A DNA stretch of 64,000 bases from Elusimicrobiota bacterium (GCA_041660185.1 JBAZWU010000001.1:182765-246764); one strand, 5' to 3'. Shown: positions 21,517 through 47,014, numbered from the stretch's first letter. Translations and numbers: made by a program. Notes: generated by a model from the letters alone, not told the origin.

Positions 21517-22555
21517 GCCTGAGGGTGACCGGCATTCCGTTCCGGCGCAGGGATTGTTGGGCGGCTTCCAGGACGCGGACCACGCGCAATCCGAATTCTC
21601 CCCCTGACCGGAGCGGGCCGCCTTGCGTAATGGCTTTGGCCCAGGCGTCGCACTGGGAATGAAGGGGCTCGACGGTATCGATCTTCGGGCTGACGACATC
21701 GCCGGAGCGGTAGGTCAGCTGGAATTCGCCGAAGGTTTCAGGATTCTTCACGACGCCTCGATGATAAACCTTGACGCGCTCGTCGCTGGCCGCGTCGTTG
21801 TACACAACCATTTTTTCCGACCCCACCAGGGAGGTCCGGCGGAGTTTCACGGGAGCCAGCCAGCTGAGATGGCTCTGGTACATGACTCCTCCGGGGAATT
21901 CCATGGTCAAATACCCCGCTTCAGCGATGCGCCGGCGGACATGAGAGGTTCCGATGGCGCGGACGCGAACAGGATCTTTCCCCAGCCATAAGAGGGCGAT
22001 CGAGACTTCATGCGGGCCCAGGTCCCAGAAGACGTCCACATCCGGCTGAAACAACCCGAGGTTGACGCGGGACGAGTCTACATAGAACAATTCTCCCAAT
22101 TCCTTGTTTAAAAGCATCTGATGGATTTTTAAGACCGGAGGACTATAGAGAAACGTATGTCCGACGGCTAGAACTCGTTTTTTCCGGCGGGCCAGCGCGA
22201 TCAGCCGGCGGGCTTCTGGAACCGAGGTGCACAGCGGTTTTTCAACCAGAACATGTTTGTCGTTCTCCAGAGCCTGCCGGACCAGCGCGTAGTGGCTTCC
22301 CACAGGGGTCGCGATGGCCACCGCCTCAATCGAACGGTCCAGCAGGATGTCGTTGAAATTGGCCGGCGTACGCAAAAGCGGGTATCGTTCGCTGATCCGT
22401 TCCAGACATTTGGGCGATTTGTCGCAGATGCTGATGAGCTCAAACGCGCGGTGTTCCGTCAAAACGCGTGCCAGGTTGGGTCCCCAATACCCATAGCCGA
22501 CGACAGCACAGGGGATGCGGCGTTGTTCGGACGATCGCTTAGTCATGAGACCCAT
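21509..22555 (-). CDS. Gfo/Idh/MocA family NAD-dependent sugar(-nucleotide) oxidoreductase (WbpB-like)
   Basis: Rossmann motif CAVVGYGYWGPNLAR. HVLVEKPL motif. Confidence 0.8.
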   Translation of the reverse strand: MGLMTKRSSEQRRIPCAVVGYGYWGPNLARVLTEHRAFELISICDKSPKCLERISERYPLLRTPANFNDILLDRSIEAVAIATPVGSHYALVRQALENDKHVLVEKPLCTSVPEARRLIALARRKKRVLAVGHTFLYSPPVLKIHQMLLNKELGELFYVDSSRVNLGLFQPDVDVFWDLGPHEVSIALLWLGKDPVRVRAIGTSHVRRRIAEAGYLTMEFPGGVMYQSHLSWLAPVKLRRTSLVGSEKMVVYNDAASDERVKVYHRGVVKNPETFGEFQLTYRSGDVVSPKIDTVEPLHSQCDAWAKAITQGGPLRSGGEFGLRVVRVLEAAQQSLRRNGMPVTLRHA

Positions 22556-29535: not shown

Positions 29536-31028
29536 GGGAGCACGACCGCCGTTGGAATTTGAAGAAGATGCCGCGTCCAGCGTTTGGCCAGGGTGCGGTC
29601 TTCTTCGTCGAAAAGCTTCCAATACAGGGTGATTATAAAAATCGGGATGATGATCAAGAAGGCGACTAAACGGTGCGGGACCCAGAGAAGCGGGGCAAAA
29701 CAGAGCAGGGTGGTGCCCAGCACAGCGGTCAATCGAAGAGGTTCCCAGATGCGGTGAATTCGTTTTCGAATGACGAGGAAGTACAGCCCGGATTGTACGA
29801 CTTGGGAGAGAATGAAAACCCAGGCCGCGGCGTCCGCTCCAAAACGGGGCATCAAGAGGCAATTGAGCGAGAGCGTCATGACAAACGTTCCGGCGTTGAT
29901 CTGGAAGTAAGCTTTTTCCTCATGGGAGGTGATGAGGAGATTGCCGAAGATCCTGTTCCAGGCCACGAAGGGAAGGCAGCAGGCGAGAAGAGCCAGCAGC
30001 CGGCCGGTCGGTTCATAAGCCATTCCCCAGATCCGCTGCACGATGGTTGATGAGAAGAACAGCAGTGTCGCGGTGGCCGGAAAGGCCAGGACGGCCGTCC
30101 ACAAAATCGCTTTCCGGCAGATCCAGGGAAGGTCGACGTCGTGATGGACGCCGGCCCGGGACATAATGGGATAAAGTACCGTCATAAAGGGGTGCCAGAC
30201 GGTTTCAACCACCGTCAACATTAAGATCGACGCCAGACTGTAATAGCCGACAATCAGCGGCGCGCAGAAAAGCGATAAAAGGACCCGGTCCAGTTTTTCG
30301 CCGGCGGTGTTAAACAAGGACACGCCGCCCATGGGCGCGCCCTCTTTCAATTCACGGACCATGGTGGTTCGATCCAGCGTAAAGTCCGGCCATTCAAAGC
30401 GATGCTTCACGACCCACGCGTGGGCGGCGGCGATGAGAACGCTATTCAAGACCATCGCCCCGAACAGCCAGTTCAGGCCTTTCCCGTTGCTTAAAACGCA
30501 GAACCCCAGCAACGCCCACCCGATGGCCGAAGCGAGTTGGGTGGCCCAGAGATAGCTTGTTCTCTGATGCGCGATATAGATCGCTTCGCCGACCTGGGTG
30601 ATGGTTGTCACGGCCAGGTGAGCGCCGGCCAGCAAAAATACTTTCCACATGAACTGGGGATATCCCAGAACCGGCAGGACAATCATCAGCCCGGTCCAGA
30701 GGACAAGGCTCGAGAGCAAACGGATCCAGAAAAACGAGCCAAATAATTTCGGCGCCTCAGCAGCGCGCCGGGTCGCCTCCCGGATGACCGCCAGGCTGAT
30801 GCCGAAATTCGAGACGGGTAAAACCAGCGCCACAAAACTCATCGTCGTGTTGTATAAACCAAAATCCGACGGCCCCAGATGCTTGGCAAAATAGATCATC
30901 CAGCCGAAATTGATGAGCCGCGTTAAAAACTGGCCGCCGCCCAGCAGAATCGCGCTGGCGCCGATATTGTTAGCCGGGGACGTGAATGACGGCGGATTAA
31001 TCGACTTTGAGGATGTCATAGGCTCCAA
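29532..31028 (-). CDS. Oligosaccharide/polysaccharide flippase (Wzx, MOP superfamily)
   Basis: About 12-14 hydrophobic helices. N-terminal region ILLGGGQFLTRLINFGWMIYFAKHLGPSDFGLY is typical of Wzx/RfbX. Confidence 0.75.
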   Translation of the reverse strand: MEPMTSSKSINPPSFTSPANNIGASAILLGGGQFLTRLINFGWMIYFAKHLGPSDFGLYNTTMSFVALVLPVSNFGISLAVIREATRRAAEAPKLFGSFFWIRLLSSLVLWTGLMIVLPVLGYPQFMWKVFLLAGAHLAVTTITQVGEAIYIAHQRTSYLWATQLASAIGWALLGFCVLSNGKGLNWLFGAMVLNSVLIAAAHAWVVKHRFEWPDFTLDRTTMVRELKEGAPMGGVSLFNTAGEKLDRVLLSLFCAPLIVGYYSLASILMLTVVETVWHPFMTVLYPIMSRAGVHHDVDLPWICRKAILWTAVLAFPATATLLFFSSTIVQRIWGMAYEPTGRLLALLACCLPFVAWNRIFGNLLITSHEEKAYFQINAGTFVMTLSLNCLLMPRFGADAAAWVFILSQVVQSGLYFLVIRKRIHRIWEPLRLTAVLGTTLLCFAPLLWVPHRLVAFLIIIPIFIITLYWKLFDEEDRTLAKRWTRHLLQIPTAVVLP

Positions 31029-32721
31029 ACCGTTGATAAGGCCGCATCGGGCCGTGAATGAATTTCTTCAGAGTGCCCCACGCCTTCACGTCCTGGGTCT
31101 GCAACACGACATAGCGGATGGGGTTCCGGGAAGACAAACCGTCGGGGACCAGCGTGACAGGTACCCCCCCGTTTTCCCTGAGCGCCACGCTGATCTCCCG
31201 GTCAAGGGGCAAGGTGCGCGCATGGCTCCGCGTGTTGTATCCGATATCTTTGTAGCTGGCGATCCCCTCCGTCCCTGTCAGATGATGGTTCAGGAAATCA
31301 ATCGTTTCCGTATAGCCAGGATCGTCCTTGGGGTTGAGCAGCGTGTACGGATAACGCTTTAAAACAGATAATTCAACGAGATTCGCCGCGAGAGCGGCCA
31401 CCACCAGGCCGAGGGTTATTCGTGAGCGGATGGATCCCGTCAAAACCCGCAGACCCAATACCAGGATGATTACAAAATCGGCTATCGCTTTCAAATAACG
31501 GACGAACCGGATATCCGTTAGACAGCCCCGGAAAGAATGAGTCGTCAGCTGTTGTTGCAGGGAAGGGATGACCACGATGTCCGGCGCCAGCCAGAAAGTC
31601 AGCGCCAGGGCCGCCAGGAAAAGCAGGGCCATGCGCTTGATTCCGGAAGCGGGCACGGAAAAGTCCAGGGATTGCACAATGGTCAAGAGGAGAAACGGCA
31701 TGAAGGGAACCAGATATTTATCCACCGTCGGGATGCAGAGAGTATAGAGGATAAACCCGGTCGCGCCGATAAAAAGCGGCAAATCATCCGCGAGTGAACG
31801 GTCGCGGAGGGGTGCCGTGAACGTCCGGCGGATCAGGCTATAGAGATACAAGACAAAAACGGGGATGGACATCCAGGCCGCGTACCAGCGGACCGCACTG
31901 ATCCGTTCATACAGCGAGGCGGCTTCCTGAAACTTGGTGCTCTGGGCGTGAAGCCCCAGCATAAAATCCCAGGGGACCCCCATCGCCTTTGTATAAAGCC
32001 ACCAGGTCATCATGAACAGGATCACTCCGGCGATAACCAAAAAACACCACTGACGGAAAATTCGCCATTCGCGATGGAACAGAAAGGCCAGGCCGATACC
32101 GGCAAACCAGACGAGAGTTGTTTCTTTGATCCAGAGGCAGATCGATAGGTAGACGATCAGGACGAGGCTGCGCTGAAAGCGCCAGTTATCCAGGAGCCAG
32201 GTCATCAAGCCGAGAAGACCCACGCCGGCCAGCGTCATAATGCTCGTATCGATATCAATCAGCAGGCTGCCGCGAAGCCAGTAAGGGTTAAGGGCCGCCA
32301 AAGCGGATAACGTGAGGACTTGGGGCGCCCAGGGCGTCGAAGGCGCTTTCTTCTTTGCCCGTTGTCTCAGCCAGAAAACACACAAGAGAAGGCTGATCAT
32401 AAAACAGGCCTGACCCAGAACACGAGCCCCCCAGGCGCTTCGGGTCCCGGTCAGAAGGGAGATGAGATAGAGATAAAACGGCGGATGCCAGAGGCCGATA
32501 TCAGCGCCCCATTGATTGTTCCAGGAGCCTTGTCCGGTTAAAAACAGTTCATTCGAGGAACCCGTGGGTATTATCGGGAAACCGGTGTCGATGATCGCGG
32601 TCCGGAAGTACAGAAAGTCAATTTCATCCGCGCGCGGAAGGTTGTGCAGGTAGGGAAAAGACAGGAGGACGTAAAGGAATAGAAAGAATCCGACAGCCGC
32701 GATAATTCGTGAGCGCGTCAT
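30997..32721 (-). CDS. Polytopic GT-C-fold glycosyltransferase-like protein, paralogue 7
   Basis: Multi-pass. First-loop LPRADEIDFLYF acidic motif. C-terminal soluble domain. ATGA overlap with the upstream GT2-MT. Confidence 0.55.
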   Translation of the reverse strand: MTRSRIIAAVGFFLFLYVLLSFPYLHNLPRADEIDFLYFRTAIIDTGFPIIPTGSSNELFLTGQGSWNNQWGADIGLWHPPFYLYLISLLTGTRSAWGARVLGQACFMISLLLCVFWLRQRAKKKAPSTPWAPQVLTLSALAALNPYWLRGSLLIDIDTSIMTLAGVGLLGLMTWLLDNWRFQRSLVLIVYLSICLWIKETTLVWFAGIGLAFLFHREWRIFRQWCFLVIAGVILFMMTWWLYTKAMGVPWDFMLGLHAQSTKFQEAASLYERISAVRWYAAWMSIPVFVLYLYSLIRRTFTAPLRDRSLADDLPLFIGATGFILYTLCIPTVDKYLVPFMPFLLLTIVQSLDFSVPASGIKRMALLFLAALALTFWLAPDIVVIPSLQQQLTTHSFRGCLTDIRFVRYLKAIADFVIILVLGLRVLTGSIRSRITLGLVVAALAANLVELSVLKRYPYTLLNPKDDPGYTETIDFLNHHLTGTEGIASYKDIGYNTRSHARTLPLDREISVALRENGGVPVTLVPDGLSSRNPIRYVVLQTQDVKAWGTLKKFIHGPMRPYQRFGAYDILKVD

Positions 32722-35427: not shown

Positions 35428-36420
35428 TTATTCTGGGTCGGTGGCGGGGTCACGTTTAGCCATCAAGGACTGGACCGACAGGCCTTCATGCCACATGGCC
35501 CAGGCCCCGAACAGGCAGATATAGATAAACTGCGTTCCATGAATGGCCAGAATCAGCGGCAGTCCTTGTTGCTTGGGGATGCCCAGCAGCGCGAGCGCGG
35601 TCACGCCAAAGAGCTCCATGGTCCCCACATAGCCCGGGGCCTGCGGCAGCGTGACGGAAAGACCCAGAAAGAAAAGCAGGAAGAAGCTTTGCGGATAATG
35701 CAAAGGGACCTGGAAGGCCCGCGCCATCAGATAGAGCATCGTTCCTTCGATTGTCCAGATCACGAGGGATAACGCCAGCGCCCGGAACACATGCCGTAAT
35801 TGCCGCATGCCGGATACCCCGTGGGCGAAATGGCTCACCGCCTCGTGTATTTTGAGACGCCAGGCCGGTTTCATCGGCAGCCGGTCCACGATCACATGAA
35901 ACCGTTCCTGATGCCGCATGATGATGATCAAGACAGCAATCACCAGCGCGCAGGAGGTCCCCAGAGCCGCCGCGCCTTTTTCAACCGATGCCGGAAACGG
36001 GAAAAAAATGGCCACGACCGCAAATGTGGTCAGAAAACTGAGCGTGTCGCAGATCCGTTCGAGGAGAACCGTTCCCAAGCTGGTGGTGCGTGAAATCCGG
36101 AATTTTCTCCCGGTCACATGGGCTCTGACAAATTCCCCCATGCGGAAGGGCAGGATATTATTCGCAAAAAAGCCGATCGCCAGAGGGGCGAAGAGCTGAG
36201 AAGCCGGAATCATCTTGATGGGTTCGAGCAAAATCGTCCATCGCAGAGCTCGAAGAAAGAATCCAATCGTGTAAATTCCAACAGCCAACAGAATCCATCG
36301 CGGATTCGCCAGAGAGAAAGACGTGGCCATCTCCCGGATGGAAAGACCCCGGCAGGCGTAATAAAGACATACCCCGGCAAGAGCAAAACCAAATAAGAGC
36401 CGTTTTTTCATGAATGACAC
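35428..36420 (-). CDS. Flippase-like domain protein (UPF0104 / MprF lysyl-PG-synthase TM-domain family)
   Basis: 8-pass membrane protein. N-terminus LLFGFALAGVCLYYACRGLS..WILLAVGIYTIGFFLRALRW is typical of the TIGR00374-type family. Confidence 0.65.
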   Translation of the reverse strand: MSFMKKRLLFGFALAGVCLYYACRGLSIREMATSFSLANPRWILLAVGIYTIGFFLRALRWTILLEPIKMIPASQLFAPLAIGFFANNILPFRMGEFVRAHVTGRKFRISRTTSLGTVLLERICDTLSFLTTFAVVAIFFPFPASVEKGAAALGTSCALVIAVLIIIMRHQERFHVIVDRLPMKPAWRLKIHEAVSHFAHGVSGMRQLRHVFRALALSLVIWTIEGTMLYLMARAFQVPLHYPQSFFLLFFLGLSVTLPQAPGYVGTMELFGVTALALLGIPKQQGLPLILAIHGTQFIYICLFGAWAMWHEGLSVQSLMAKRDPATDPE

Positions 36421-36466
36421 ATTCTACTTGTTGGAGCTTCGGACCGCCACCGCGTCAACTGTACTC

Positions 36467-37381
36467 TTAAATCAGTGCGATCCGTTGCAGTATGTCGCGA
36501 AAAAACGCCGGCGACCAAGCGCCCAGGGTCTCCGGGTTTTTCACAAAGGGTTCGACTTCTTTTCTGGCCATCGCGACGTCCAACTGATCAACGGCCGCGT
36601 TGGCCAGGGAGAGGAAACGGTCGCGCGTCACGGAAAGGCCCGGTTTCAGATCGTCGCTCTGGATCATGCGCTGCGCCAGATGCGCCGCATGCAGTTTCGG
36701 GTGATTGGCCGCATACCACACCAGATCGTACCAGTCGCGGCCCTTGACCCGGTTCTTCCACTTTCGACAAAGGACCGCATGCATCTTTCCCGCGAAAAGA
36801 TCCGGGAGGACATAGGTGCGGACACCAAACGGGATAGGATGCAGCAGGAACTTATTTTCCGTTTCGAATCCTGGCGGCGGATCGGTGTCGACTTCGAGGC
36901 GGATCTTGATGGTCTGCCCGTAAGGAATCTTTCGCAGGAGCGGTTCGGCGGTTTTAATCATCAGGAGGTGTCTGACGGTGTCGGCCTTGAGGAAGGCGGA
37001 CTGGACTTTGCTCTCGGCTGTTTTCTCCTTCTTTTCCAGCCGCACATCGAACCCGAACGAGGCGATTTCCCGCTCCAGGGCGCCCGTATACTGCCGCAGA
37101 TCGAAACCCGGCCCTCCACACGCCCGGCGGGCCGGGTCGCCGGCAGTGTGAAGACCCGGCATCGGCCGAAGGAGCGAAAAGTCCAGATCTTCGGAAAACC
37201 GGTCGAGCCCATAGAGAAGCCTGAGCGATGTCCCGCCATAGAAAGCCGCTTTCTCGAAAAACTTGCTTCGCCAGAGGCCCAGAAGGGCGATCTCTTGGAG
37301 GATTTCCCGCAGCGCCTGGACGCGATTATCCACCGTCCGGGTTTCGTAGCGGGCGAGCATTCGGGCCACCGCTTCATTCAT
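36467..37381 (-). CDS. abiEii: Nucleotidyltransferase toxin, AbiEii/AbiGii family (DUF1814), type IV TA
   Basis: Hallmark FYGGTSLRLLYGLDRFSEDLDFS motif. 8-nt overlap with the upstream antitoxin gene. Confidence 0.85.
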   Translation of the reverse strand: MNEAVARMLARYETRTVDNRVQALREILQEIALLGLWRSKFFEKAAFYGGTSLRLLYGLDRFSEDLDFSLLRPMPGLHTAGDPARRACGGPGFDLRQYTGALEREIASFGFDVRLEKKEKTAESKVQSAFLKADTVRHLLMIKTAEPLLRKIPYGQTIKIRLEVDTDPPPGFETENKFLLHPIPFGVRTYVLPDLFAGKMHAVLCRKWKNRVKGRDWYDLVWYAANHPKLHAAHLAQRMIQSDDLKPGLSVTRDRFLSLANAAVDQLDVAMARKEVEPFVKNPETLGAWSPAFFRDILQRIALI

Positions 37382-38033
37382 CGTGCTTTTCCCCTTCGGC
37401 CGGTGGTTGGATCAAGAGGCTCAGCCAGCGGATTTTCCGGGAACGATAGGCGGTGGCAATTCGCGCCACGAGATCCGTCTTCATGCCAGCCAGTCCCGCA
37501 GGATCCATCCGCAGATGATGTACCAGATACTCCCGTAAGTCGGCCGGGCTCATGATGGCGGTCCCCCGATCGGCAATCAGCTTGTCGGCAAGCGCTTTTT
37601 CCGGGACCGCGATCAGAAAGGAGCGATCCTCGTCGATTTCCACCTGATCGATTCCCAGCGCATACGTGGCGGCGGGAACCTGGCGATAGCTGAAGCGGCC
37701 GATCGGTGTCGAAAATTCACGCCCGCGACCCGGGGTGCAGGAGGTGATGCTTTCAACCCGCTCGGGAATCAGGCCATAGTAGTGGAGAGCGTAATCCAAA
37801 GAGATATAAGAGGGTCCGTAAATGAGGTTGGCCAGAACTTCCCGGGAAAACGGACGCCGGGCCAGCGTTTCACCGAAGACATAGAGGCCCTTCTTGACCC
37901 GAATGATCGACTTCTTTTTAAGCAGCGCGCGGATCTTGTCCCGGGGACGGTCGTATTCCCGCAGAACGTCCATCAGCATCTGATAGTCGAATTCTTCCCC
38001 GGCCACGCGCCTTCGCAGATCGTCAAGCTCCAT
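37374..38033 (-). CDS. abiEi: AbiEi family antitoxin / transcriptional autoregulator (winged-helix N-terminal domain)
   Basis: Position immediately upstream of and overlapping abiEii. N-terminal ..KIRALLKKKSIIRVKKGLYVFGE.. matches the AbiEi pattern L..G.L.R...G.Y. Confidence 0.7.
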   Translation of the reverse strand: MELDDLRRRVAGEEFDYQMLMDVLREYDRPRDKIRALLKKKSIIRVKKGLYVFGETLARRPFSREVLANLIYGPSYISLDYALHYYGLIPERVESITSCTPGRGREFSTPIGRFSYRQVPAATYALGIDQVEIDEDRSFLIAVPEKALADKLIADRGTAIMSPADLREYLVHHLRMDPAGLAGMKTDLVARIATAYRSRKIRWLSLLIQPPAEGEKHDE

Positions 38034-38039
38034 GGGGTG

Positions 38040-38090
38040 TATATATCACAATTAACATAGTATGTCGAGTATTATTCGACTTACTATGTT
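38040..38090 (-). promoter_or_regulatory. abiE promoter with overlapping inverted-repeat operator
   Basis: Minus strand: TCGACA (38063-38068) -17 nt- TATATA (38040-38045), only 6 nt before the ATG and with no SD. Inverted repeat AACATAGTATGTCGA (38054-38068) / TCGACTTACTATGTT (38076-38090), 14/15 complementary, overlaps the -35. Confidence 0.5.
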
Positions 38091-38197
38091 CATATATTAA
38101 TGAACCTAAAAGAAAGGCAGGCAGCATCTTTGCCATTAAGCTGAGCGTGCCATTCAGGATGAAGTCGGACATTCAGAATATGAACAACATTTCGAAC

Positions 38198-40000
38198 TTA
38201 GAATCGCCACTGCGCCAGTTGTTTGGCGACGACGGAAGGGTCATAGGAAAGAATCGCCCGGTCGTAATCGGAGAAATCCGCCGACGGGGAGAATCCCTCC
38301 CGGTTGTATCGAGCTTGTAGATTTTCCAGGAGCTTAATGGCGTGCCGTTTCTGCCCCAGGGCGCGATAGCAACGGGCCATCCAAAGGTCCGTCTCCCAAT
38401 AGCGCGGCTCGAACTGGCGGGCTCTTTCAAACCACGACAGCGCGGCCGATGGATCACCCATTCGGAAATGAATGCGGCCCAGAGCCAGCGCGTTGGTCGC
38501 TCGACCGGGGGCCAATTGAAGCGCTGTGTGATATTGGGAAAGGGCTTGAGGTAAATCGTCCAATCGCTGAGTGGCTTCCAGCGCGCGGCCAAACGACTCC
38601 CGGTAATACAATTGCCAAGGCGACAGACGCACTGATTTTTTGTGAAACGCAACAGCGGATCCGGCATCCTGTTGTTGCAGGCTCAACTGATGCCACGCTT
38701 CGGCGTCCCAGGGTTCCCACCGGGCCAGCCGGTCCCACCGTTGATTTTGGGCCCAGTGGTCTCGTAAAGCCAGACTCCCGAGGAGTCCCCAGAGACAGAC
38801 GGACACCAGACAGAGTCCGGCAACGGGGGTGGGGGTCGTGCTGATCCTTTTTTGAGAATCATGATAAAGGGTAGCCGCCCAAACCAGCGATAAAAAAACA
38901 AGAAACGGCATATGCCAGACGATATTGGTTAAGCTGCCCATCGCCATCACCAGCAGAGCGACATACGCTTCCGGGTGATGGGTGCCTCTCTTCCCCCCGT
39001 ATTTCCAGAACAGCCCGGCGAGTGCGGTCAAAAACAAGACCGCGGTGCCCAGCCCATATTCGCTGGCCAGCTGGAGATATTCATTGTGCGCAAATTGGGT
39101 GGTGCGGCCAAAGCGGATCGGGTCCGTTTCGATCGGGAAGGCATAGCGTTGATAAGCCATCTCGAAATTGCCCGCTCCATAACCCATGAGAGGGTTGTCT
39201 GCAATGGCTTTAATGGCGATCCCCCAGATCGGTATCCGGCCCTGGACCTCATTGGTTCGCAAATGGCGAGCGATCACGGTTTGTATCGGAGGAATCCCCA
39301 AAGCGATCACGACCCCTGCGACGCATCCGATCAAAACGCGACGCGCTGTTAACCAGGGACGTCCCAGATACATCACGCCTGCGATGGAAGCCAAAAAGGC
39401 GCTTCGAGAAGGGCCTTGGACAACAATGAAAAGGAGTCCGATCGCCAAAAGAAGTTCAAGGCGGTTTGACCATCGCTTTTTGTCGGTCCCTGGGCGCTGC
39501 CATCGAGCTAAAAGACCGAACGAAAGAGCGGTCATCCATAGGGCATTAAAAATCCGGTTGATGGGTAAAAAACCAGAGCTGAAACTCCATAGTCCTTGAT
39601 GCCACTCCCACAGCGTCTTCAGCGCGCTCAGGGCTACCAATAGAGAGCAGACATGCCAAAAAAGGTCGTCTTGCTTCAGAAGCTTTGGATGCATTTTCAG
39701 GGTGATCCACAGAACCCAATAAACCAATGCTTGGGTTGTCCAGAAGAGGCTGGCGCTTATATCACGGGATCCGAAGAAGGATAAAAGAATCAAAAAAAGC
39801 AGAAGAAATTCTATGCGCAGATCCGCAGGGGATGACTTGTTGACTACGTTATTGGTTGTCATCAAAGGAACGATCAAGAGGAGGAGCGGTGTTGCCCAGA
39901 CACAAAAGGACAGCGGTGTTTTGGCTCCTTGAAGGCAAAACCCAAGGACCAGAAGGAAGGAGAGGCCGTATCGTTCCGTCAGTTTAGAAGCGTTTATCAT
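38198..40000 (-). CDS. O-antigen ligase/PglL-like (Wzy_C domain) membrane protein with C-terminal TPR repeats
   Basis: Multi-pass. Wzy_C-type motifs GPSRSAFLA, RIPIWGIAIKAIADNPLMGYGAGNF and FAHNEYLQLASEYGL. C-terminal ~200 aa with TPR-like repeats (..ALGRIHFRMGDPSAALSWFERA..). Confidence 0.75.
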   Translation of the reverse strand: MINASKLTERYGLSFLLVLGFCLQGAKTPLSFCVWATPLLLLIVPLMTTNNVVNKSSPADLRIEFLLLFLILLSFFGSRDISASLFWTTQALVYWVLWITLKMHPKLLKQDDLFWHVCSLLVALSALKTLWEWHQGLWSFSSGFLPINRIFNALWMTALSFGLLARWQRPGTDKKRWSNRLELLLAIGLLFIVVQGPSRSAFLASIAGVMYLGRPWLTARRVLIGCVAGVVIALGIPPIQTVIARHLRTNEVQGRIPIWGIAIKAIADNPLMGYGAGNFEMAYQRYAFPIETDPIRFGRTTQFAHNEYLQLASEYGLGTAVLFLTALAGLFWKYGGKRGTHHPEAYVALLVMAMGSLTNIVWHMPFLVFLSLVWAATLYHDSQKRISTTPTPVAGLCLVSVCLWGLLGSLALRDHWAQNQRWDRLARWEPWDAEAWHQLSLQQQDAGSAVAFHKKSVRLSPWQLYYRESFGRALEATQRLDDLPQALSQYHTALQLAPGRATNALALGRIHFRMGDPSAALSWFERARQFEPRYWETDLWMARCYRALGQKRHAIKLLENLQARYNREGFSPSADFSDYDRAILSYDPSVVAKQLAQWRF

Positions 40001-41528
40001 TCTTTAAATAGGGAGCGGCCGATAGAAGTTCCTGCCGAAGGAGCCCGGCTGCCTGAGGCATCCCAGCGATGGTGTAGAGTTGAAGGGTGTTTCGCCAATA
40101 GGAGGTTCGAACAGGTTCCCGCTCCAGAGCGGATAACTGGCCGGCCAGGGCTTCTAGGAGAGGACCGGAATGGCTTGTCGTGCGTGCTTCTTCCAGCGCC
40201 AGGCGCGATCGCAATTCATAAGGAGCAGCTGCTCCTGGAGAGAGGCGGGTGGCCTCTTCCGACCAGCGGCCGGCCTGCGCATAATCCCCTGTTCGAAAAG
40301 CGGCTTCCGCTTTGGCTTGCCAACGATCCGCCTGAAAATACGAAAGGGCCAGCCAGGCACCGGCGCAACCGATCGTCAGTCCGGTCGCCCGGATAATATA
40401 AGGAAGATGGCGATGAGATGTGACCGCGGCCCAGGGGCCGCTGCATAAGGACAGCAAGCTCCAGAAGAGGAAAGCATGAGCCGGGATCAGCAGGCTGTAG
40501 TCGATCGTGTTGTGCACTATCACGGCGATGACCCCGGCCGCCAGGAAGGGGCGGTGGGACCCGCGAAGGGCATAAATCCAGAGAGCCGCCAGGCTGGATA
40601 AGAACAGGAGGCCATTTTCAGCCAGCCATTGGAGCAGCGTGCTGTGAGCATACAACGAATAGAGGGAAAGGTCTTTTAAATGCGGGATGGCCATCTCAAA
40701 GGATCCTGGACCCAGACCCCGGAAGGGATGGACCGCGGCCATTTGGAGCGTGGCTTGCCACCAGAGCCAGCGATGCGGGTCGCCTCCCGCGGAAAACTTC
40801 CAGAGAACTCCCCCCAGTAAAATCAACACGGCCATTAGAAACCAAGAACGGTTCTGTCTCCGGCCTTTCTGTTCGCGGCCGGACAAATACAGCAATCCTG
40901 CGGCAAAACCCAGAAAAGCGCCTATTGAACCGGTCCGAATCAGAGTCCCACCTGTCAGAATCAGAAACAAGACCGGCCAGAGACGGGAACGGGAGTCATT
41001 CAATCGTTCAAGACCAGCAAAAAATGGGATCAGCAGATACCCGGCCAGCAGATTGGGATTAAGGAGACTCGCCTGAAGGGCGGCATGACGGAAGAAGAAC
41101 TGGCCGAGCGCCCAGAGACAGAGCAGACTCCAGGTCCAGAAAAGAGCGGTGATAAACTTCTTTTGTTCATCAGAGGAAAGCCGGCCCGTTAAGAAAAAAA
41201 TAAGCGCATAATCCACCCATAACCAAAATTCCTGCTGGCTACGGACAGGACAACCGGAGAAGAAGGTGGAAATACCTAATGTGACGAGGAGACAGGCCCA
41301 GAGTCTGGAGTAGATCATCGCTTCTTTCGAAAGAGCAACGTTGTTGAGGACCCATCGGCAGGCCAGGCCAATCAGCGTGACGTGAATAAGCGTTTGAGCC
41401 CATAGATCCACGGCCGCGGCGCAGAAAGGTGCGAGGGCAACAACTCCCAACAGGACCCAAAAATCAAAACGCAGACGGATCAAGGATAAAGCATCCGTCT
41501 GCGTCTTCAAAGATGGAGTTAACGTCAT
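39984..41528 (-). CDS. O-antigen ligase/PglL-like (Wzy_C domain) membrane protein with C-terminal TPR repeats (second copy)
   Basis: Motifs RTGSIGAFLGF, HPFRGLGPGSF and YAHSTLLQWLAENGL. TPR-like tail. Its ATG overlaps the pilQ stop (ATGA). Confidence 0.75.
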   Translation of the reverse strand: MTLTPSLKTQTDALSLIRLRFDFWVLLGVVALAPFCAAAVDLWAQTLIHVTLIGLACRWVLNNVALSKEAMIYSRLWACLLVTLGISTFFSGCPVRSQQEFWLWVDYALIFFLTGRLSSDEQKKFITALFWTWSLLCLWALGQFFFRHAALQASLLNPNLLAGYLLIPFFAGLERLNDSRSRLWPVLFLILTGGTLIRTGSIGAFLGFAAGLLYLSGREQKGRRQNRSWFLMAVLILLGGVLWKFSAGGDPHRWLWWQATLQMAAVHPFRGLGPGSFEMAIPHLKDLSLYSLYAHSTLLQWLAENGLLFLSSLAALWIYALRGSHRPFLAAGVIAVIVHNTIDYSLLIPAHAFLFWSLLSLCSGPWAAVTSHRHLPYIIRATGLTIGCAGAWLALSYFQADRWQAKAEAAFRTGDYAQAGRWSEEATRLSPGAAAPYELRSRLALEEARTTSHSGPLLEALAGQLSALEREPVRTSYWRNTLQLYTIAGMPQAAGLLRQELLSAAPYLKNDKRF

Positions 41529-42976
41529 TCAGCAGTAATTTTTGGGGTCAGGAAAACAATCAGCTCCGTGCGTTGTTTCCGGTCGTCGGTGGTTTTGAAA
41601 AGGTAGCCGAGGATCGGGATATTCATCAGGAACGGGATACCGGATACGGTTTTGGTGGTGTTTTCTTTAATGAGTCCGCCGATGGCGATGGTTTCTCCAT
41701 CTTTCAGAATCACCGTGGTGTCCGCGTTTCGCGTATTCACCTGGGGCGGGGCTCCGGTGGCGGTCACGCTGGCGTCACTGACCTCCGGTCGCACCTTCAG
41801 GGTGATGCGGCGATCCGCGTTCACCGTGGGTTTAACGTTCAACTTCACGCCAGCGGTAATAAACTGGACGCTCTGCTGAGACGCTCCGCTGCCGGAGAGG
41901 GTGGAGACATAATAAGGATACTGAGAAGCGACTTCAATTTTAGCCTCTTCGTTGTTGATCGTCACAATATGCGGGGTGGACAGAATCTTCACGCGCCCTT
42001 TGTTGGCCAGAGCGGTGAGTTGAGCGCCGAGTAAATAGGCGCCCTTCTGGGTCAAGAGCGATAACGCTACTGAACTCATGGACGAACCTGGCAGATTAAC
42101 GCCTGTCCCTGCCGTTGCTTGATTGTCCGTATATGTAGTGAACGGAGCTACGGGTAAATAACCGCCACTCCCGGGAACTATTGTCGTTTCACTCGTGTTC
42201 GATGAACCGATTGAGGAGTCACCGCCCTTATTTTGAACAGCATATTGCCAGCTGATGCCGGTCTGGGTTTCGTCGTCGAGCGTCACTTCAACGATCTTGG
42301 ATTCAATATCCACCTGCTGCGGCTTCTTATCCAGTATGGGAATCAGGTCTTCGACTTCCTTCAGGCCTTCCTGGGTATCGGTAATAATGATGGAATTCGT
42401 CGCTTTATCAACGGTGGAAACCCCCTTGCGGCCGGCGGAACTGCGGATGGCATCAATGGGTTTTTTCACTTCTTCGGCGGTGGCATAATTCAGGCGGAAA
42501 ACGCGGGTAAAGGTCGTTGCCTGCGATTGTTCCGTCGTCAGGGCTGTTGAGGTCACCACGCGGATCACCTTGGGCCCCATGGGCAAGGCCACCAGCGCTT
42601 TGAGGGTCAGAATCGTGTGGAAGGCCTGATCAAACGGAACCCGATCCAGATGAACCGAGACAGGACCCAAGACGTCCGATCCATAAATGATATTCAGCCC
42701 GGATTTAACGGCCAGCAGATGGAGCACATCCCGGACATCGGCATCCTGAAAATCCATCGTCATGGGGGTTTTAGGTAGAACCAGATCGCCGACCCGGGTG
42801 GTTTGGGCGCGGGGGGCTTCCTCGCTTTCTGAAGAGGGCGTCGTTTGAACCTCGGAGGTGCCGGCGGACAGATCCGCGTCGCGCATCTCGGAGTCCACCG
42901 CAGCCAGAAGCGGTTGGCCGGAGAGGCAGATCGACAGTAGCGTCGCTAAAATAGGTTGTCCTTTAAGCTCAATCAT
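41525..42976 (-). CDS. pilQ: Type IV pilus secretin PilQ
   Basis: Secretin C-domain GIPFLMNIPILGYLFKTTDDRKQRTELIVFLTPKI. NolW-like repeats. Start at MIELKG is preceded by GGAGGA; the ORF-track extension is rejected. Confidence 0.85.
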   Translation of the reverse strand: MIELKGQPILATLLSICLSGQPLLAAVDSEMRDADLSAGTSEVQTTPSSESEEAPRAQTTRVGDLVLPKTPMTMDFQDADVRDVLHLLAVKSGLNIIYGSDVLGPVSVHLDRVPFDQAFHTILTLKALVALPMGPKVIRVVTSTALTTEQSQATTFTRVFRLNYATAEEVKKPIDAIRSSAGRKGVSTVDKATNSIIITDTQEGLKEVEDLIPILDKKPQQVDIESKIVEVTLDDETQTGISWQYAVQNKGGDSSIGSSNTSETTIVPGSGGYLPVAPFTTYTDNQATAGTGVNLPGSSMSSVALSLLTQKGAYLLGAQLTALANKGRVKILSTPHIVTINNEEAKIEVASQYPYYVSTLSGSGASQQSVQFITAGVKLNVKPTVNADRRITLKVRPEVSDASVTATGAPPQVNTRNADTTVILKDGETIAIGGLIKENTTKTVSGIPFLMNIPILGYLFKTTDDRKQRTELIVFLTPKITAE

Positions 42977-43001
42977 ACGATCCTCCAAACACCCGTCATT
43001 T

Positions 43002-43442
43002 TCAATTAATAGTCGCTTTCGCCCGAATTTCACGAACCGCACGGTCCGCGCCGGTGATGACGACACTGTCCGTCTTGATGACGCCTGAAATATTTTTGAT
43101 CGGGCGGTTGCGCGAATTATATAAGCGTCCACCCCGCAAAATGTAACTGCTGGCGCCGCTGCTCAGGAGCGCCATTCGGCCCCGGGAATCCTGCACGATC
43201 CCCCGAAGAACCAGCGAGGCGATTTGCGGCGGCCGGTCTATGATCTGGTCATTCCGGGAATCCCCGGTTAAGGGAATAAAGGGGTCTCGATAGCGGTCCC
43301 CATAGAATTGGTAATTCAGATAGAACGGTTTGGGAGCCGATGGACGCGGGGTTACGGTCTTCGGGGCAGAGACGCCGACCGTCCAACCGCTGCCGGATAC
43401 GGATAAAATCAGAAAGGCCAAGAGTAAAGGTCGATTATTCAT
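43002..43442 (-). CDS. pilP: PilP-like pilus assembly protein
   Basis: Position between pilO and pilQ. Signal peptide. DPFIPL motif followed by LVLRGIV...ALL....Y.LR.G pattern. No lipobox Cys. Confidence 0.5.
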   Translation of the reverse strand: MNNRPLLLAFLILSVSGSGWTVGVSAPKTVTPRPSAPKPFYLNYQFYGDRYRDPFIPLTGDSRNDQIIDRPPQIASLVLRGIVQDSRGRMALLSSGASSYILRGGRLYNSRNRPIKNISGVIKTDSVVITGADRAVREIRAKATIN

Positions 43443-43986
43443 GGTATTTAAACGCAATGAGCGTAAAGGTGGCCGTCACGGTCTTCGACGCGTCCGTCTT
43501 GGAATTGGTGCCCTGCAGGGCCAGATTTCTCGCGGCAAACAAGCGTTCGCCCTTGCCCATGGCGGTAAAGAAATTTCCGATGGTATGGAAGGAGGCGGAC
43601 AAGGACACCTGATAAGGCACTTCATCATAGAGGCCTTTGGGAGCGGATTTTTGCGGGGCAAATGACGCCAACGTTAAGCCGTAGGACTCGACGCGGTGGG
43701 TGAACACGCGGATCAAGCTTGGTAATTCCACGCTCTTCGGCAGCTGGCGTTCCAGTTCAGCCACATCCACCTGAAGGCTCTGCATTTCGGTCTGGATTTT
43801 ATTCAGCTGTCCGGCCCGGGCGCGAGCGAGGCTCAGTTTTGAGTTCAACTCCGCCACGTTTCTTTTCTCGAAGGAAATCGAGTTTTGTAGAGGCTGGAAA
43901 ACAAATTTCCAGTATCCCCATACGCTGGCGCCAATCAGCGCCAGGGAACACAGAAGAAGCGTGATGTTACGATTTTTTAGTGGCAT
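43435..43986 (-). CDS. pilO: Type IV pilus assembly protein PilO
   Basis: Single N-terminal TM, then a coiled-coil, then a ferredoxin-like C-terminal part. Synteny pilM-N-O. Confidence 0.7.
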   Translation of the reverse strand: MPLKNRNITLLLCSLALIGASVWGYWKFVFQPLQNSISFEKRNVAELNSKLSLARARAGQLNKIQTEMQSLQVDVAELERQLPKSVELPSLIRVFTHRVESYGLTLASFAPQKSAPKGLYDEVPYQVSLSASFHTIGNFFTAMGKGERLFAARNLALQGTNSKTDASKTVTATFTLIAFKYHE

Positions 43987-44560
43987 CGGGCACCGGGTTC
44001 ATTCGTTTATACATCGTATTAATATGGAAGGAGATCGTTTGTCCCCCTTCCGCCTGCTGGGTCGCGTTAAGCGTCCCCATATCAATGTCAGAGAAAATTT
44101 GTGATGTTTCAAGGTTTGAAATCAGATCGGCGATGGCATAGTTGTCGAGCGCGATGAGATCCATGCCGACCTGAAGATTGTTGCTGCCGGGCTGGCTCAC
44201 GGTCGTTAAGTTGGTCAGCCAGAGATTCCCCGGGAGCAGTTTGACGAAATCATCCATAAACTGCGGGTAGCGAAGCCTCTCACTTTCCAGCTGTTGAATA
44301 ATATTTTTCCGGTTTCCGAGCTGTAGTTTCTGAGCTTCCAGAGCCTCGACTTGGTTGATAATCGGCTGGTAACGCTCCAGCTCGCTCTTTAAGGCCGCCG
44401 AGTCTATTTGGAGGTGTTTGTGCGTCCCTTTCTGTTTGATCCAGAGGGGAATGAGAAAAATGACTAAAATCAAAACAGCCGGAGCGACAATGGGAATGGC
44501 GGGATTAACGGGTGTGGCATTGGTTTCCAATTCCGATGGAAGTAAATTGATGTGGATCAT
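43967..44560 (-). CDS. pilN: Type IV pilus assembly protein PilN
   Basis: MIHINLLP N-terminal PilM-binding motif. Single TM. Coiled-coil. Confidence 0.8.
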   Translation of the reverse strand: MIHINLLPSELETNATPVNPAIPIVAPAVLILVIFLIPLWIKQKGTHKHLQIDSAALKSELERYQPIINQVEALEAQKLQLGNRKNIIQQLESERLRYPQFMDDFVKLLPGNLWLTNLTTVSQPGSNNLQVGMDLIALDNYAIADLISNLETSQIFSDIDMGTLNATQQAEGGQTISFHINTMYKRMNPVPDATKKS

Positions 44561-45642
44561 GCGACGCCGTCCTTTACGCGACGGGTGGCCAGACCCAGTG
44601 CCACCGCCAGTTGCGGCAGTTGAGCCTGTTGTTCTTCCGTCAGGTCGGTCGGCGGATTTTGTAACAGCGGAAGAGGATTAAAGATTTCAACCTGAATTTT
44701 CAGTTCATTCGCCAGAAGGGTGTCCAACATTTTTAAATTGGCGCTTCCCCCGCAAAGAAAAATCTTATTCACCAAGCGATCCGTCCCTTGGGACAGATAA
44801 AAATCGATGGATCGTTGCACCTCGGTGATCAGATCTCGGGCAACGGGCAAAAGCGCTTCCGTGGTTTGTTGCGCTTCCGGATCAGAAGCGTTTTCGACCA
44901 GGCCGTAGGTCAGTTTCTTTTGTTCGGCTGTTTTGACGTCACATTGGAACTGCCGTTGGATAGCTTTGGTGAACGTATTTCCGGCGATAAAAACATCCCG
45001 GACGACCCGGCTGACCCCTTTTTCAACGATGGACATATTGGTAAAGCTGGCGCCGATATTCAAAAAGAGGACCGTCTCCGATTGCGAACCCGGGAAAACC
45101 TGTTCGTAGGCATTCTCAAGCGCAAAGGCATCTACATCCACAATCACCGGCTGAAGGCCGGCTTCCTTCAGGACATCCACCCGCAACTCCACCGAGTCTT
45201 TTTTGGCGGCCACCAGAAGGGTTTCCATCTGGGATTGCCCCTCTTCCACCAAGTCCCCCAAGATATCAAAACTGATGTTCACGTCTTCAATATTAAACGG
45301 GATGTAAGGTTCCGCCTCAAATTTGATGGATTTAGCTAATTCAGCCGCCGGCATCTTATTCATCTTGACGTATCGGACGATGACCGAATTTCCGGACACG
45401 GAGGTGACGGATTTCTGGGAGGGAAGGGCTGTTGTCCGCAGGTAATTCTGAAGAGCCATAATGGCTTGACCTTTGCGGTCAATCAGCGGGGTATCCAACG
45501 GCAAATCGTCTCCATAAGGAATAACCCCCCAGTGCATCAAGCTCCATTGCCCCCCTTGTTTTTTCAGGCAAACCAGCTTAATCGCAAAGGTGCCAATGTC
45601 AACACCTAGAAGGTCTTGTTTCCGTTTGAAGAAGTTCAACAT
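44557..45642 (-). CDS. pilM: Type IV pilus assembly ATPase-like protein PilM (actin fold)
   Basis: LLGVDIGTFAIKLV phosphate-1 motif. LNIGASFTN and LCGGSANL motifs. Confidence 0.85.
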   Translation of the reverse strand: MLNFFKRKQDLLGVDIGTFAIKLVCLKKQGGQWSLMHWGVIPYGDDLPLDTPLIDRKGQAIMALQNYLRTTALPSQKSVTSVSGNSVIVRYVKMNKMPAAELAKSIKFEAEPYIPFNIEDVNISFDILGDLVEEGQSQMETLLVAAKKDSVELRVDVLKEAGLQPVIVDVDAFALENAYEQVFPGSQSETVLFLNIGASFTNMSIVEKGVSRVVRDVFIAGNTFTKAIQRQFQCDVKTAEQKKLTYGLVENASDPEAQQTTEALLPVARDLITEVQRSIDFYLSQGTDRLVNKIFLCGGSANLKMLDTLLANELKIQVEIFNPLPLLQNPPTDLTEEQQAQLPQLAVALGLATRRVKDGVA

Positions 45643-45719
45643 TCGAAATTGTGTAAAGACATATCAAATCTCACGTTGTTTACAAATCAGAGCTAATCTA
45701 ACAGGAGTGTTAGAAGTTG

Positions 45720-46487
45720 TCAAGGGGAAATCACCCGGATCCACTCATTCGGGAAGAGACAAGCCAGGTACGCGCCGAAGCTTAAAAAGGGGCCGAAGGG
45801 TAAAACGTCCCCTCTTTTCTTTCTGCCGAAGAGCATGAGACCGCCTCCGAGAAGCCCGCCGAGGAGTGATCCAAAAAAGAGAGAACCGAATAACCCGGAC
45901 CAACCTAACAGAGCGCCAAAGGCGGCCATCAGCTTAATGTCTCCTCCGCCTAGAGCCTCTTTTTTAAATAGTTTTTCTCCTAACCAGGCCAGCAGGAGCA
46001 TTCCCAGAAAACCCGTCGTTCCAGCCAGAAGACTTTCGATCACCCCCGGCCAACCTCCCGGGAGGAAGGGGTTCTTATAGGAAAAGACCAACCCCCAAAT
46101 CACTAAGGAGAGAGAGAGTTCATCCGGAATGATGCGATGACGATAGTCAATTATGGAGAGAGTGAGTAAATAAAACGAGAGCAGGTCGGAAATCAAAACG
46201 CGTCCTGGAGATCCAAACCACAGGGCATTGAACATAAATAGGAAAGCCATGGTTGTTTCGACCAACGGATACTGCCACAAAATCGGTTGATGACAGAAGT
46301 GGCATCGTCCCCGGAGAAATAAAAAGCTAAGCAAGGGAATGTTGTCGATCCAGCGGAGGGGGTGACTGCATTGAGGACAGCGGGATCGCGGAAAGCCTAA
46401 CGATTCGCATTTTGGGAGTCGGAGGATACAGACATTGGCAAAGCTTCCAAAGGCGAGTCCAAACAAAAAGGAGATGAGATAACGCAT
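45720..46487 (-). CDS. pilD: Prepilin peptidase / N-methyltransferase PilD (A24 family)
   Basis: Cys-rich CPQCSHPL...RGRCHFCHQPI. Catalytic Asp motifs IIDYRHRIIPD and GGGDIKLMAAFGALLGW. Confidence 0.9.
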   Translation of the reverse strand: MRYLISFLFGLAFGSFANVCILRLPKCESLGFPRSRCPQCSHPLRWIDNIPLLSFLFLRGRCHFCHQPILWQYPLVETTMAFLFMFNALWFGSPGRVLISDLLSFYLLTLSIIDYRHRIIPDELSLSLVIWGLVFSYKNPFLPGGWPGVIESLLAGTTGFLGMLLLAWLGEKLFKKEALGGGDIKLMAAFGALLGWSGLFGSLFFGSLLGGLLGGGLMLFGRKKRGDVLPFGPFLSFGAYLACLFPNEWIRVISP

Positions 46488-46500
46488 TTAAGGATAAAGC

Positions 46501-46534
46501 AAAAAGCGATCCCCGATTTCGGGGATCGCTTTTT
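46501..46534 (-). terminator. Rho-independent terminator/attenuator downstream of pilA
   Basis: AAAAAGCGATCCCCGA-tt-TCGGGGATCGCTTTTT is a perfect 16-nt inverted repeat with A/T tracts on both sides. It sits 25 nt after the pilA stop and upstream of pilD. Confidence 0.8.
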
Positions 46535-46558
46535 GTAAGACCTGTTCTTGAATGTTTG

Positions 46559-47014
46559 TTAGTACGACGTCCACGGGCTGCTTTTCAGGTCATTGTGTGA
46601 ACAATTGACCACAAGACTCCCGTAGGTCGTTGACGTGGCGGAGTTGTCGTTGTTGTAGTACCACCCGCCGGCATCGCCGAGAGTGTTTACAACCGCCGCA
46701 CTGGTCCCATGTCCAGCACCATTGTTCGTGGTCCTCGGCAGGGTTGCCGATGGTATGGATTGCATGTATTTCTGCGCCGTTGTCAGCACAGCCAGGCTTG
46801 CTGCGGCTACTGGATAGACCCCTTCGTTATCTCCGTAATAAATAGATAACGCGGAGCGGATGGATCCCAGGTTCCCTTTCGTGGCTCCTTCTTGTGATTT
46901 GGACACCATGTTCGCGAATTGCGGAATCGCGATGGCGGCCAGGATACCAATGATAGCGACGACAATCATGAGTTCGATCAGGGTGAACCCTCGTTTGGAT
47001 TTCAAGTGACTCAT
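46559..47014 (-). CDS. pilA: Type IVa major pilin
   Basis: Leader MSHLKSKRG|FTLIELMIVVAIIGILAAIAIPQF (class III signal, Glu5). Start at the ATG 8 nt after AAGGAGG; the ORF-track GTG at 47023 is less likely. Confidence 0.9.
   Translation of the reverse strand: MSHLKSKRGFTLIELMIVVAIIGILAAIAIPQFANMVSKSQEGATKGNLGSIRSALSIYYGDNEGVYPVAAASLAVLTTAQKYMQSIPSATLPRTTNNGAGHGTSAAVVNTLGDAGGWYYNNDNSATSTTYGSLVVNCSHNDLKSSPWTSY

Follow-up and report, generated by a model that had tools for sequence, protein, structure and literature searches.

Tandem Wzy_C-TPR genes behind pilQ in an Elusimicrobiota bacterium: a conserved linkage and a possible role in pilus protein glycosylation

Introduction

Do two genes of the O-antigen ligase family, lying at the end of a type IV pilus operon, serve the pilus or the lipopolysaccharide (LPS)? 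The question is raised by a stretch of 64,000 nucleotides of DNA from an Elusimicrobiota bacterium (GCA_041660185.1, JBAZWU010000001.1:182765-246764; hereafter the window), in which two genes for Wzy_C-domain membrane proteins with tetratricopeptide repeat (TPR) tails, here called wzyC1 and wzyC2, follow pilQ, the gene for the pilus secretin. Both the enzyme family and O-glycosylation of pilins are already known. A few Proteobacteria have Wzy_C enzymes that carry out this modification, with the enzyme gene standing alone or beside the pilin gene. Current genome annotation describes the genes of the window as ‘O-antigen ligase family protein’, without any pilus context. A first-pass annotation, made from the sequence of the window alone, had proposed that one or both proteins may glycosylate the pilin or other pilus components, and had regarded the arrangement as undescribed. 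We likewise found no paper on Wzy_C genes in pilMNOPQ operons, although absence from the searched literature is not proof.

Results

Two Wzy_C genes close the pilMNOPQ operon

The genes considered here are all on the minus strand, and coordinates are counted from the start of the window (Table 1). The genes are arranged in the order pilin, prepilin peptidase, pilM, pilN, pilO, a PilP-sized open reading frame (ORF), pilQ, wzyC1 and wzyC2. The operon order pilMNOPQ-wzyC1-wzyC2 read by the first-pass annotation is supported by Pfam and NCBIfam matches, with PilP assigned from position and size. The ATG of wzyC1 (41528-41526) overlaps the TGA of pilQ (41527-41525) as ATGA, in the sequence GCTGAATGACG, and the ATG of wzyC2 at position 40000 lies 17 nt ahead of the end of wzyC1; both overlaps are as first reported. 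A consensus scan placed a good promoter-like site just 5' of pilM and a strong terminator after pilA, and detected no strong promoter- or terminator-like element from pilM to the end of wzyC2.

The linkage to pilQ is conserved across lineages

Related loci (numbered L001 onwards) were scanned with an alignment of the wzyC1 family, a combined alignment of 18 sequences being too diverse. Close homologues were few, with 35-40% identity. Two of these loci (L002 and L003) contain pilQ, a Wzy_C gene, a Wzy_C-TPR gene and then a flippase-like gene, while in L001 pilQ is followed by a type-2 enzyme, an inverted type-1 enzyme and then the flippase-like gene. Homologues with about 30% identity were found in Elusimicrobia, where pilMNOPQ precedes a single Wzy_C gene, two genes that we call X1 and X2, and again a flippase-like gene.

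We surveyed the linkage from both of its sides. The survey from the Wzy_C side used one genome per species and a peptide pattern drawn only from the Wzy_C N-terminus. It yielded 26 loci, nearly all of them from metagenome-assembled genomes of Elusimicrobiota, with one Endomicrobium among them. pilQ lay immediately 5' of the Wzy_C gene in all 26, separated from it by a median gap of 7.5 nt, and pilMNOP preceded pilQ wherever the contig extended far enough. A flippase-like gene was present 2-4 kb 3' of Wzy_C in most of the loci that were sufficiently long.

For the survey from the PilQ side, metagenome contigs were scanned with a PilQ alignment, and the downstream ORFs were scored with purpose-built Wzy_C hidden Markov models. 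The close set comprised the 32 loci in which PilQ was at least 37% identical and the sequence ran on for 1 kb or more after it. A Wzy_C gene was found downstream in 29 of these, directly so in 26, the exceptions being L057, L068 and L099; in L057, X1 comes directly after pilQ and there is no Wzy_C gene. A tandem pair was present in 11 loci, in which the first gene was most like type 1 and the second most like type 2 by profile score. Where PilQ was at most 36% identical, Wzy_C was downstream in none of 23 loci. Two distant pilQ genes are directly followed by a gene for a coiled-coil and TPR protein without a Wzy_C domain (L091, 7161-8108; L109, 7196-10303), and this suggests that a TPR partner beside pilQ is a theme wider than the Wzy_C fusion. 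In L008 and L066, a small TPR protein is encoded between pilQ and the Wzy_C-TPR gene, while in L077 the Wzy_C-TPR gene alone separates pilQ from the flippase-like gene.

From both surveys, the constant element is pilMNOPQ followed by Wzy_C-TPR, usually with a flippase-like gene near. Its recurrence in dozens of divergent loci argues against a chance juxtaposition. Conservation of the linkage extends over Elusimicrobiota and further deep, related uncultured lineages, and the case is thereby stronger than the first-pass annotation knew when it named a synteny survey as a check. The family itself is small, since an exhaustive profile search among 1.84 billion representatives found only 179 clusters (50% identity) at E ≤ 1e-30.

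The X1 and X2 proteins, which replace wzyC2 in Elusimicrobiota (L006, 11784-13730 and 13720-15573), are paralogous polytopic proteins of about 620-650 aa, each with a large C-terminal extramembrane region followed by a final transmembrane (TM) helix. Neither belongs to a Pfam or NCBIfam family. A YfhO/GT-C-like identity, guessed from their sequence, was unsupported and was set aside.

Both proteins have the WaaL fold and conserved catalytic residues

Pfam Wzy_C (PF04932) was matched with 36.0 bits by wzyC1 and 62.3 bits by wzyC2 (cut-off 31.7), and by each of the 50 family members scanned. The two proteins are distant paralogues, 27% identical across 355 aa and collinear into the tail. The motifs quoted in the first-pass annotation were found in both, as YAHSTLLQWLAENGL and GLGPGSF in wzyC1, and as FAHNEYLQLASEYGL and GYGAGNF in wzyC2. 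AlphaFold2 (AF2) models were obtained with a mean predicted local distance difference test score (pLDDT) of 91.1 and a predicted TM-score (pTM) of 0.91 for wzyC1, and 84.1 and 0.87 for wzyC2. For both models the best Foldseek match in the PDB was the cryo-EM structure of WaaL (7tpg_B), with E-values of 1.6e-5 for wzyC1 and 6.8e-7 for wzyC2 and target-normalised TM-scores of 0.54 and 0.52, respectively. The remaining good matches were TPR proteins only, namely designed consensus TPR proteins (CTPRs) and the TPR domain of OGT. When the PDB sequences were searched with either protein by itself, TPR proteins were the only matches; the family profiles reached 7TPG by sequence as well (E 5.5e-6 and 4e-12). 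The Wzy_C identity first assigned to both proteins is therefore upheld by Pfam scores above the cut-off and by the predicted fold.

We then compared the conserved residues with those known to be catalytic, taking as reference His H338 of E. coli WaaL and H349 of NmPglL, and the Arg pairs R288/R298 and R215/R224. Profile alignment placed His295 of wzyC1 and His305 of wzyC2 on the catalytic His338 of E. coli K-12 WaaL. Across 50 members of the wzyC1 family, R253, G271, G273, H295 and P349 are invariant, and P268, G275 and D343 nearly so; in the wzyC2 family the invariant residues are S198, R199, R255, G273/275/277 and H305. The second catalytic Arg (R198/R199) was assigned by position only. The motif H[NS]x9Gxx around the His, typical of ligases and of O-oligosaccharyltransferases (O-OTases), is conserved. 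A Pro at Arg+15 and invariant Gly at Arg+18 and Arg+20 give the spacing of R298/P313/G316/G318 in NmPglL, as judged by counting positions and not by direct alignment. G316 and G318 are conserved in PglL but not in WaaL (Schulz et al., PMC3643930). A further motif, A(W/V)DLWAQ, lies towards the N-terminus in the first predicted periplasmic turn and is specific to the family.

TPR tails and predicted topology

The first-pass annotation had given both proteins a TPR tail. In wzyC2 this is seen directly, with Pfam TPR families at residues 477-567 and PDB matches of the region to CTPR proteins and the OGT TPR domain. The tail of wzyC1 has no Pfam TPR match. We nevertheless take it to be TPR-like, because the wzyC1-family profile matches consensus TPR proteins (E 2.5e-13) and the AF2 model shows five to six antiparallel helices at residues 416-510, for which Foldseek matched designed TPRs.

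Each model has 13 membrane helices ahead of the tail, which is predicted to share its side of the membrane with the catalytic loop. Counts of Lys and Arg in the short loops were 11 versus 3 for wzyC1 and 12 versus 2 for wzyC2, and by the positive-inside rule these predict a cytoplasmic N-terminus, with the catalytic loop and TPR tail in the periplasm in both proteins. This assignment is based on DSSP helices and the positive-inside rule, and not on the geometry of the models.

Pilus genes of the window

Table 1. Features of the pilus operon, its Wzy_C genes and the nearest downstream membrane protein gene. Coordinates are positions in the window.
Feature	Coordinates	Strand	Evidence or description
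Pilin (major type IV prepilin)	46559..47014	-	Leader MSHLKSKRG/FTLIELM; Pfam N_methyl E 4.4e-10 and NCBIfam pilin models
Terminator-like hairpin, strong	46500..46535	-	16-bp stem, 9 GC pairs, then T-rich tail
Prepilin peptidase (PilD)	45720..46487	-	Pfam A24_N_bact E 2.6e-33, Peptidase_A24 E 2.8e-20
Sigma-70-like promoter candidate, 5' of pilM	45695..45723	-	TTGACA-17-TAGATT, 10/12 matches, extended TG; consensus match only
pilM	44557..45642	-	Pfam PilM_2 E 4.4e-62
pilN	43967..44560	-	Pfam PilN E 7e-10; 4-nt overlap with pilM
pilO	43435..43986	-	Pfam PilO E 2.9e-23
PilP-like gene	43002..43457	-	Named from position and size
pilQ secretin	41525..42976	-	Secretin E 2e-51, Secretin_N, STN; TIGR02515 297.6 bits (cut-off 284.35)
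wzyC1	39984..41528	-	514 aa, WaaL/PglL fold, 13 TM helices and TPR-like tail
wzyC1 TPR-like tail (residues ~399-514)	39987..40334	-	Family profile against consensus TPR; AF2 helical hairpins
wzyC2	38198..40000	-	600 aa, paralogue, 13 TM helices, longer TPR domain
wzyC2 TPR domain (residues ~416-600)	38201..38755	-	Pfam TPR_19, TPR_2, TPR_14; PDB TPR matches
Flippase-like membrane protein (LPG_synthase_TM / TIGR00374)	35428..36420	-	PF03706 E 3.6e-50; TIGR00374 E 4.3e-23

The pilin carries a class III signal peptide. Alignment with two orthologues showed a variable loop rich in Ser, Thr and Asn (about residues 121-133) in which Thr127 is invariant, a single Cys in each protein, and a conserved C-terminus, WTSY or WSTY, ending in Tyr. 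The hairpin that follows the pilin gene separates pilA from the genes 3' of it, and probably allows high pilin expression independent of the prepilin peptidase and pilM-Q.

No Pfam or NCBIfam match was obtained for the product of the PilP-like gene, and orthologues with 27-71% identity occupy the equivalent position in related loci. The pilQ ORF, when called mechanically (41525-43132), begins at a GTG (43132) and overlaps the PilP-like gene by 131 nt. The true start is probably Met53 (42976), judging from the signal-peptide-like stretch that follows it. The N-terminus of mature PilQ has a low-complexity stretch rich in Ser, Thr, Glu and Pro, the type of region that is targeted by general O-OTases.

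The downstream glycan locus

On the same strand, wzyC2 is followed by an AbiEi/AbiEii pair (36467-38033), the flippase-like gene, and then about 35 kb of glycan genes. The antitoxin is AbiEi-like (37374-38033) and matches NCBIfam TAA_AbiEi at E 1.6e-9, short of the cut-off; the toxin is an AbiEii (36467-37381) with a Pfam match at E 2e-32. The pair looks like an insertion between wzyC2 and the flippase-like gene, because the latter directly follows wzyC2 in L002, L003 and L040. A near-perfect 21-nt palindrome (38051-38093) lies just 5' of the pair, and a 381-aa ORF rich in Arg, Pro and Gly, which runs antisense to AbiEii (36410-37555, plus strand), is probably a spurious shadow ORF.

The glycan super-locus (153-35311, minus strand) is very long and co-directional. 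It encodes an epimerase, several fusions of a GT2 glycosyltransferase (GT) with a methyltransferase, GT1, GT2 and GT4 enzymes, a Wzx flippase, a GT9 heptosyltransferase (about 22 kb from the Wzy_C genes), an Asn-synthase homologue, a UDP-sugar dehydrogenase and a WecA-like Glycos_transf_4 protein. There are five PMT_2/GT-C genes, at 3703-5571, 11784-13031, 19882-21699, 22539-24122 and, with a weak TMEM260-like match, 6284-7819. Large polytopic proteins that belong to no family are encoded at 30997-32721 and 15951-17885, and a 574-aa polytopic protein without a Pfam match, encoded next to wzx, is a candidate polymerase. Since one co-directional array contains a WecA-like transferase, Wzx and many GTs, it is plausible that an oligosaccharide donor linked to undecaprenyl diphosphate (Und-PP) comes from the adjacent locus, as had been suggested at first pass.

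The flippase-like gene (PF03706 / TIGR00374), which encodes a stand-alone membrane protein, recurs 3' of Wzy_C in L001-L003, L006, L009, L011-L035 and L040-L077, often beside a GT2 gene, and its product may flip a lipid-linked sugar for the neighbouring transferases. At the far end of the super-locus, the gene order at 153-7819 matches that of L004 and L005, with PMT_2, GT2, GT-C-like, WecA-like Glycos_transf_4, amine oxidase and GT4 genes. In L004 and L005 a third kind of Wzy_C-TPR gene (P0009) is present between the amine oxidase and GT4 genes, where the window has a 33-nt gap (1326-1358).

Discussion

The reading that we favour, with a probability of about 45%, is that wzyC1 and wzyC2 are periplasm-facing glycan transferases tied to the pilus machine, most likely protein O-OTases whose TPR tails select or dock pilus proteins. 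The conservation of the pilQ linkage across lineages suggests a protein-glycosylation step dedicated to the pilus. The donor would be an Und-PP-linked oligosaccharide from the adjacent glycan locus, flipped to the periplasm and transferred en bloc to Ser/Thr (or Tyr) residues of type IV pilus proteins. The major pilin would be an acceptor, as would, together with it or in its place, minor pilins, PilQ or PilN. Recognition or docking of these proteins would fall to the TPR tail, a function proposed also for the C-terminal periplasmic domains of PglL and PglS and for the TPR region of WsfB, and the two paralogues may differ in acceptor or in glycan. O-glycoproteins of Neisseria include PilE, PilQ, PilN and minor pilins, and by this analogy PilQ, PilN or minor pilins are as likely a substrate as the major pilin (PMC11130364). 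The first-pass proposal of pilus glycosylation is supported in part, by the fold, the TPR tails, the coupling to pilQ and a plausible donor. That the pilin is glycosylated by wzyC1 or wzyC2 is an inference, given that the PglL_A domain is absent, that the features of the dedicated pilin enzymes TfpO and TfpM are not shared and that the operon leads straight on into glycan genes.

A number of observations weigh against an assignment to the pilus. PglL_A (PF15864) was matched at E ≤ 0.01 by neither wzyC1 nor wzyC2, and by none of the 50 family members. Wzy_C_2 (PF11846), which is typical of PglL-like proteins, points both ways, since it was matched in three of the 50 (best E 2.3e-7) but in neither protein of the window. 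WaaL and PglL or other O-OTases cannot be separated by simple sequence comparison (PMC3643930). The genes also depart from the dedicated pilin enzymes, in that they follow pilQ at about 5 kb from pilA, with a strong terminator after pilA; a TfpO/TfpM-like reading was rejected on this gene position, on protein size and on the C-terminal Tyr of the pilin. The Wzy_C-TPR fusion itself is a common one, found in many phyla and not necessarily near pil genes, and P0009 of L004 is a distant homologue that lies in a glycan cluster without pil genes. In most loci, moreover, the Wzy_C gene overlaps the following gene by 4 or 11 nt. The operon therefore extends beyond Wzy_C, which is linked no less closely to the glycan and membrane-protein genes that follow (X1/X2, flippase-like) than to pilQ. 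An LPS O-antigen pathway in the adjacent locus is plausible, and because the window contains LPS-type genes (GT9, Wzx) and, over its 64 kb, no Wzy_C gene besides wzyC1 and wzyC2, one of the two could be an O-antigen ligase.

With PglL_A absent, the TfpO/TfpM features missing and the operon running into a glycan locus, a role in surface glycans is the main rival, and a serious one. One or both proteins would then be WaaL-type ligases joining an Und-PP-linked O-antigen or polysaccharide to lipid A-core or another lipid, and the link to pilQ would be that of an old super-operon for envelope biogenesis and not a sign of shared function. This we regard as possible but doubtful. The overlap with downstream genes, the pil-free setting of P0009 and the lack of another Wzy_C gene all speak for it, as do 7TPG being the best PDB match by both structure and sequence and the way in which the genes lead into a co-directional glycan array of about 38 kb (Wzx, candidate polymerase, PMT_2, GT9, WecA-like). 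However, classical WaaL is a protein of about 400-420 aa without a C-terminal domain, whereas the proteins described here have an additional TM helix and a TPR tail, as O-OTases do (PMC9829042, PMC2943079). The adjacency to pilQ also persists though the downstream genes change wholesale, from wzyC2 to X1/X2 to nothing in L077, and the linkage is lost exactly where PilQ becomes more distant. Finally, LPS does not need two ligases in tandem.

The tails invite another explanation, that they are PilQ-binding or assembly modules, like PilF, PilW or Tgl, which tether the enzyme to the secretin or alignment complex, so that it modifies PilQ or a pilus-associated glycan or lipid anchor and not the pilin. 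The pilus cluster of the window lacks a gene for a separate TPR lipoprotein, and the TPR proteins encoded after the distant pilQ genes of L091 and L109, and between pilQ and Wzy_C in L008 and L066, would be in keeping with such modules. PilQ of Neisseria is a glycoprotein (PMC11130364), the N-terminus of PilQ in the window has the composition noted above, and the type_IV_pilW model of NCBIfam gave a weak match (E 0.003, 17 bits against a cut-off of 154). Pilotins, however, are lipoproteins of the outer membrane, whereas the TPRs found here form part of an inner-membrane protein with 13 TM helices. The TPR similarity is also generic, its best matches being designed TPRs and OGT and not PilF or PilW, and the strict conservation of the catalytic residues points to a primarily enzymatic role, which makes this explanation unlikely. 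Still less probable is that the proteins are Wzy-type polymerases, or a polymerase and a ligase, for an exopolysaccharide or capsule, with the TPR region coupling polymerisation to export in the manner of BcsC, PgaA, PelB or AlgK. Pfam Wzy_C does take in some polymerases, the TPR regions gave weak matches to PgaA and PrsT, and a Wzx flippase is encoded downstream. Yet the 574-aa protein adjoining wzx is the better candidate for a polymerase, the conserved His motif is of the ligase/O-OTase type, and no exporter of the OPX, PCP or beta-barrel kind was recognised among the neighbouring genes.

Returning to pilus-linked O-OTases, a more specific and rather doubtful picture would have the Wzy_C-TPR protein as a subunit of the pilus machine that docks on PilQ, PilP or PilN and glycosylates pilins or the secretin where the pilus is assembled, with the flippase-like protein supplying the glycan; it would then form a new O-OTase class distinct from PglL, PglS, TfpO and TfpM. 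What is apparently new is a distinct subfamily, an ordered tandem pair, the TPR tails and a phylum-wide fixation behind pilQ. Throughout a largely uncultured phylum, and among its relatives, a Wzy_C-TPR family has a fixed place at the end of the pilMNOPQ operon, represented there by one gene or more. If the proteins act on pilus proteins, they would represent a fifth bacterial O-OTase class and an instance of machine-coupled glycosylation, and could provide glyco-engineering enzymes with modular, TPR-based acceptor recognition. If they are LPS ligases, the conserved super-operon would amount to an unexplained coupling of pilus assembly with the biogenesis of outer-membrane glycans.

Comparison with known systems

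Among the dedicated pilin enzymes, TfpO (PilO) and TfpM resemble the proteins of the window in being Wzy_C enzymes genetically linked to pilus genes. TfpO and TfpM act solely on type IV pilins, are encoded immediately 3' of the pilin gene and modify a C-terminal Ser or Thr (Knoot et al., PMC9829042). They are proteins of 420-470 aa with no C-terminal domain, whereas the window encodes enzymes of 514 and 600 aa with TPR tails.

Likeness to WaaL is seen in the best structural match (7TPG, from Cupriavidus metallidurans), in the shared His motif and in the neighbouring LPS-type locus. Sequence similarity is limited to the catalytic loop, however, and WaaL proteins (419 aa in E. coli, 413 aa in 7TPG) have 12 TM helices and no TPR, as against 13 TM helices and a TPR tail here. 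WaaL genes lie in core-oligosaccharide clusters and not behind pilQ; the Wzy_C genes of the window are contiguous with a large glycan locus, yet terminal in the pil operon.

The pilotins PilF, PilW and Tgl share with these proteins a TPR module, here predicted to be periplasmic, that is genetically associated with the PilQ secretin. Pilotins, though, are small and have no enzymatic domain, while here the module is the tail of an inner-membrane enzyme.

A closer parallel to the architecture is provided by WsfB of Paenibacillus alvei and WsaB of Geobacillus stearothermophilus. WsfB, like PglL, carries a C-terminal TPR region, while WsaB lacks TPRs and a separate TPR protein (WsaA) is encoded upstream (S-layer review, PMC2943079). 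Both variants occur among the pilQ-linked loci, with L008 and L066 mirroring the form with a separate TPR protein. WsfB and WsaB differ in belonging to monoderm hosts, in having an S-layer protein as acceptor and in having no link to a pilus.

Finally, PglL/PglO of Neisseria and PglS of Acinetobacter have in common with the proteins of the window the Wzy_C core, the conserved Arg and His residues and, by position counting against NmPglL, the spacing of the Gly pair and Pro. At 520-620 aa, PglL and PglS have a larger periplasmic domain at the C-terminus, and they act on internal sequons (PMC9829042), and the 514- and 600-aa proteins described here likewise have an extra, predicted periplasmic C-terminal domain, made up of a TPR tail after the 13th TM helix. 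PglL and PglS use Und-PP-glycans from an O-antigen-like pathway, and type IV pilus proteins are among their substrates (PMC3643930, PMC9829042, PMC11130364). Unlike the genes for PglL and PglS, those of the window are terminal in a pilMNOPQ operon and form an ordered tandem pair, and their products carry the motif A(W/V)DLWAQ of their own family. Taken together, these comparisons indicate that the architecture of wzyC1 and wzyC2, judged by analogy, fits the class of PglL, PglS and WsfB rather than classical WaaL.

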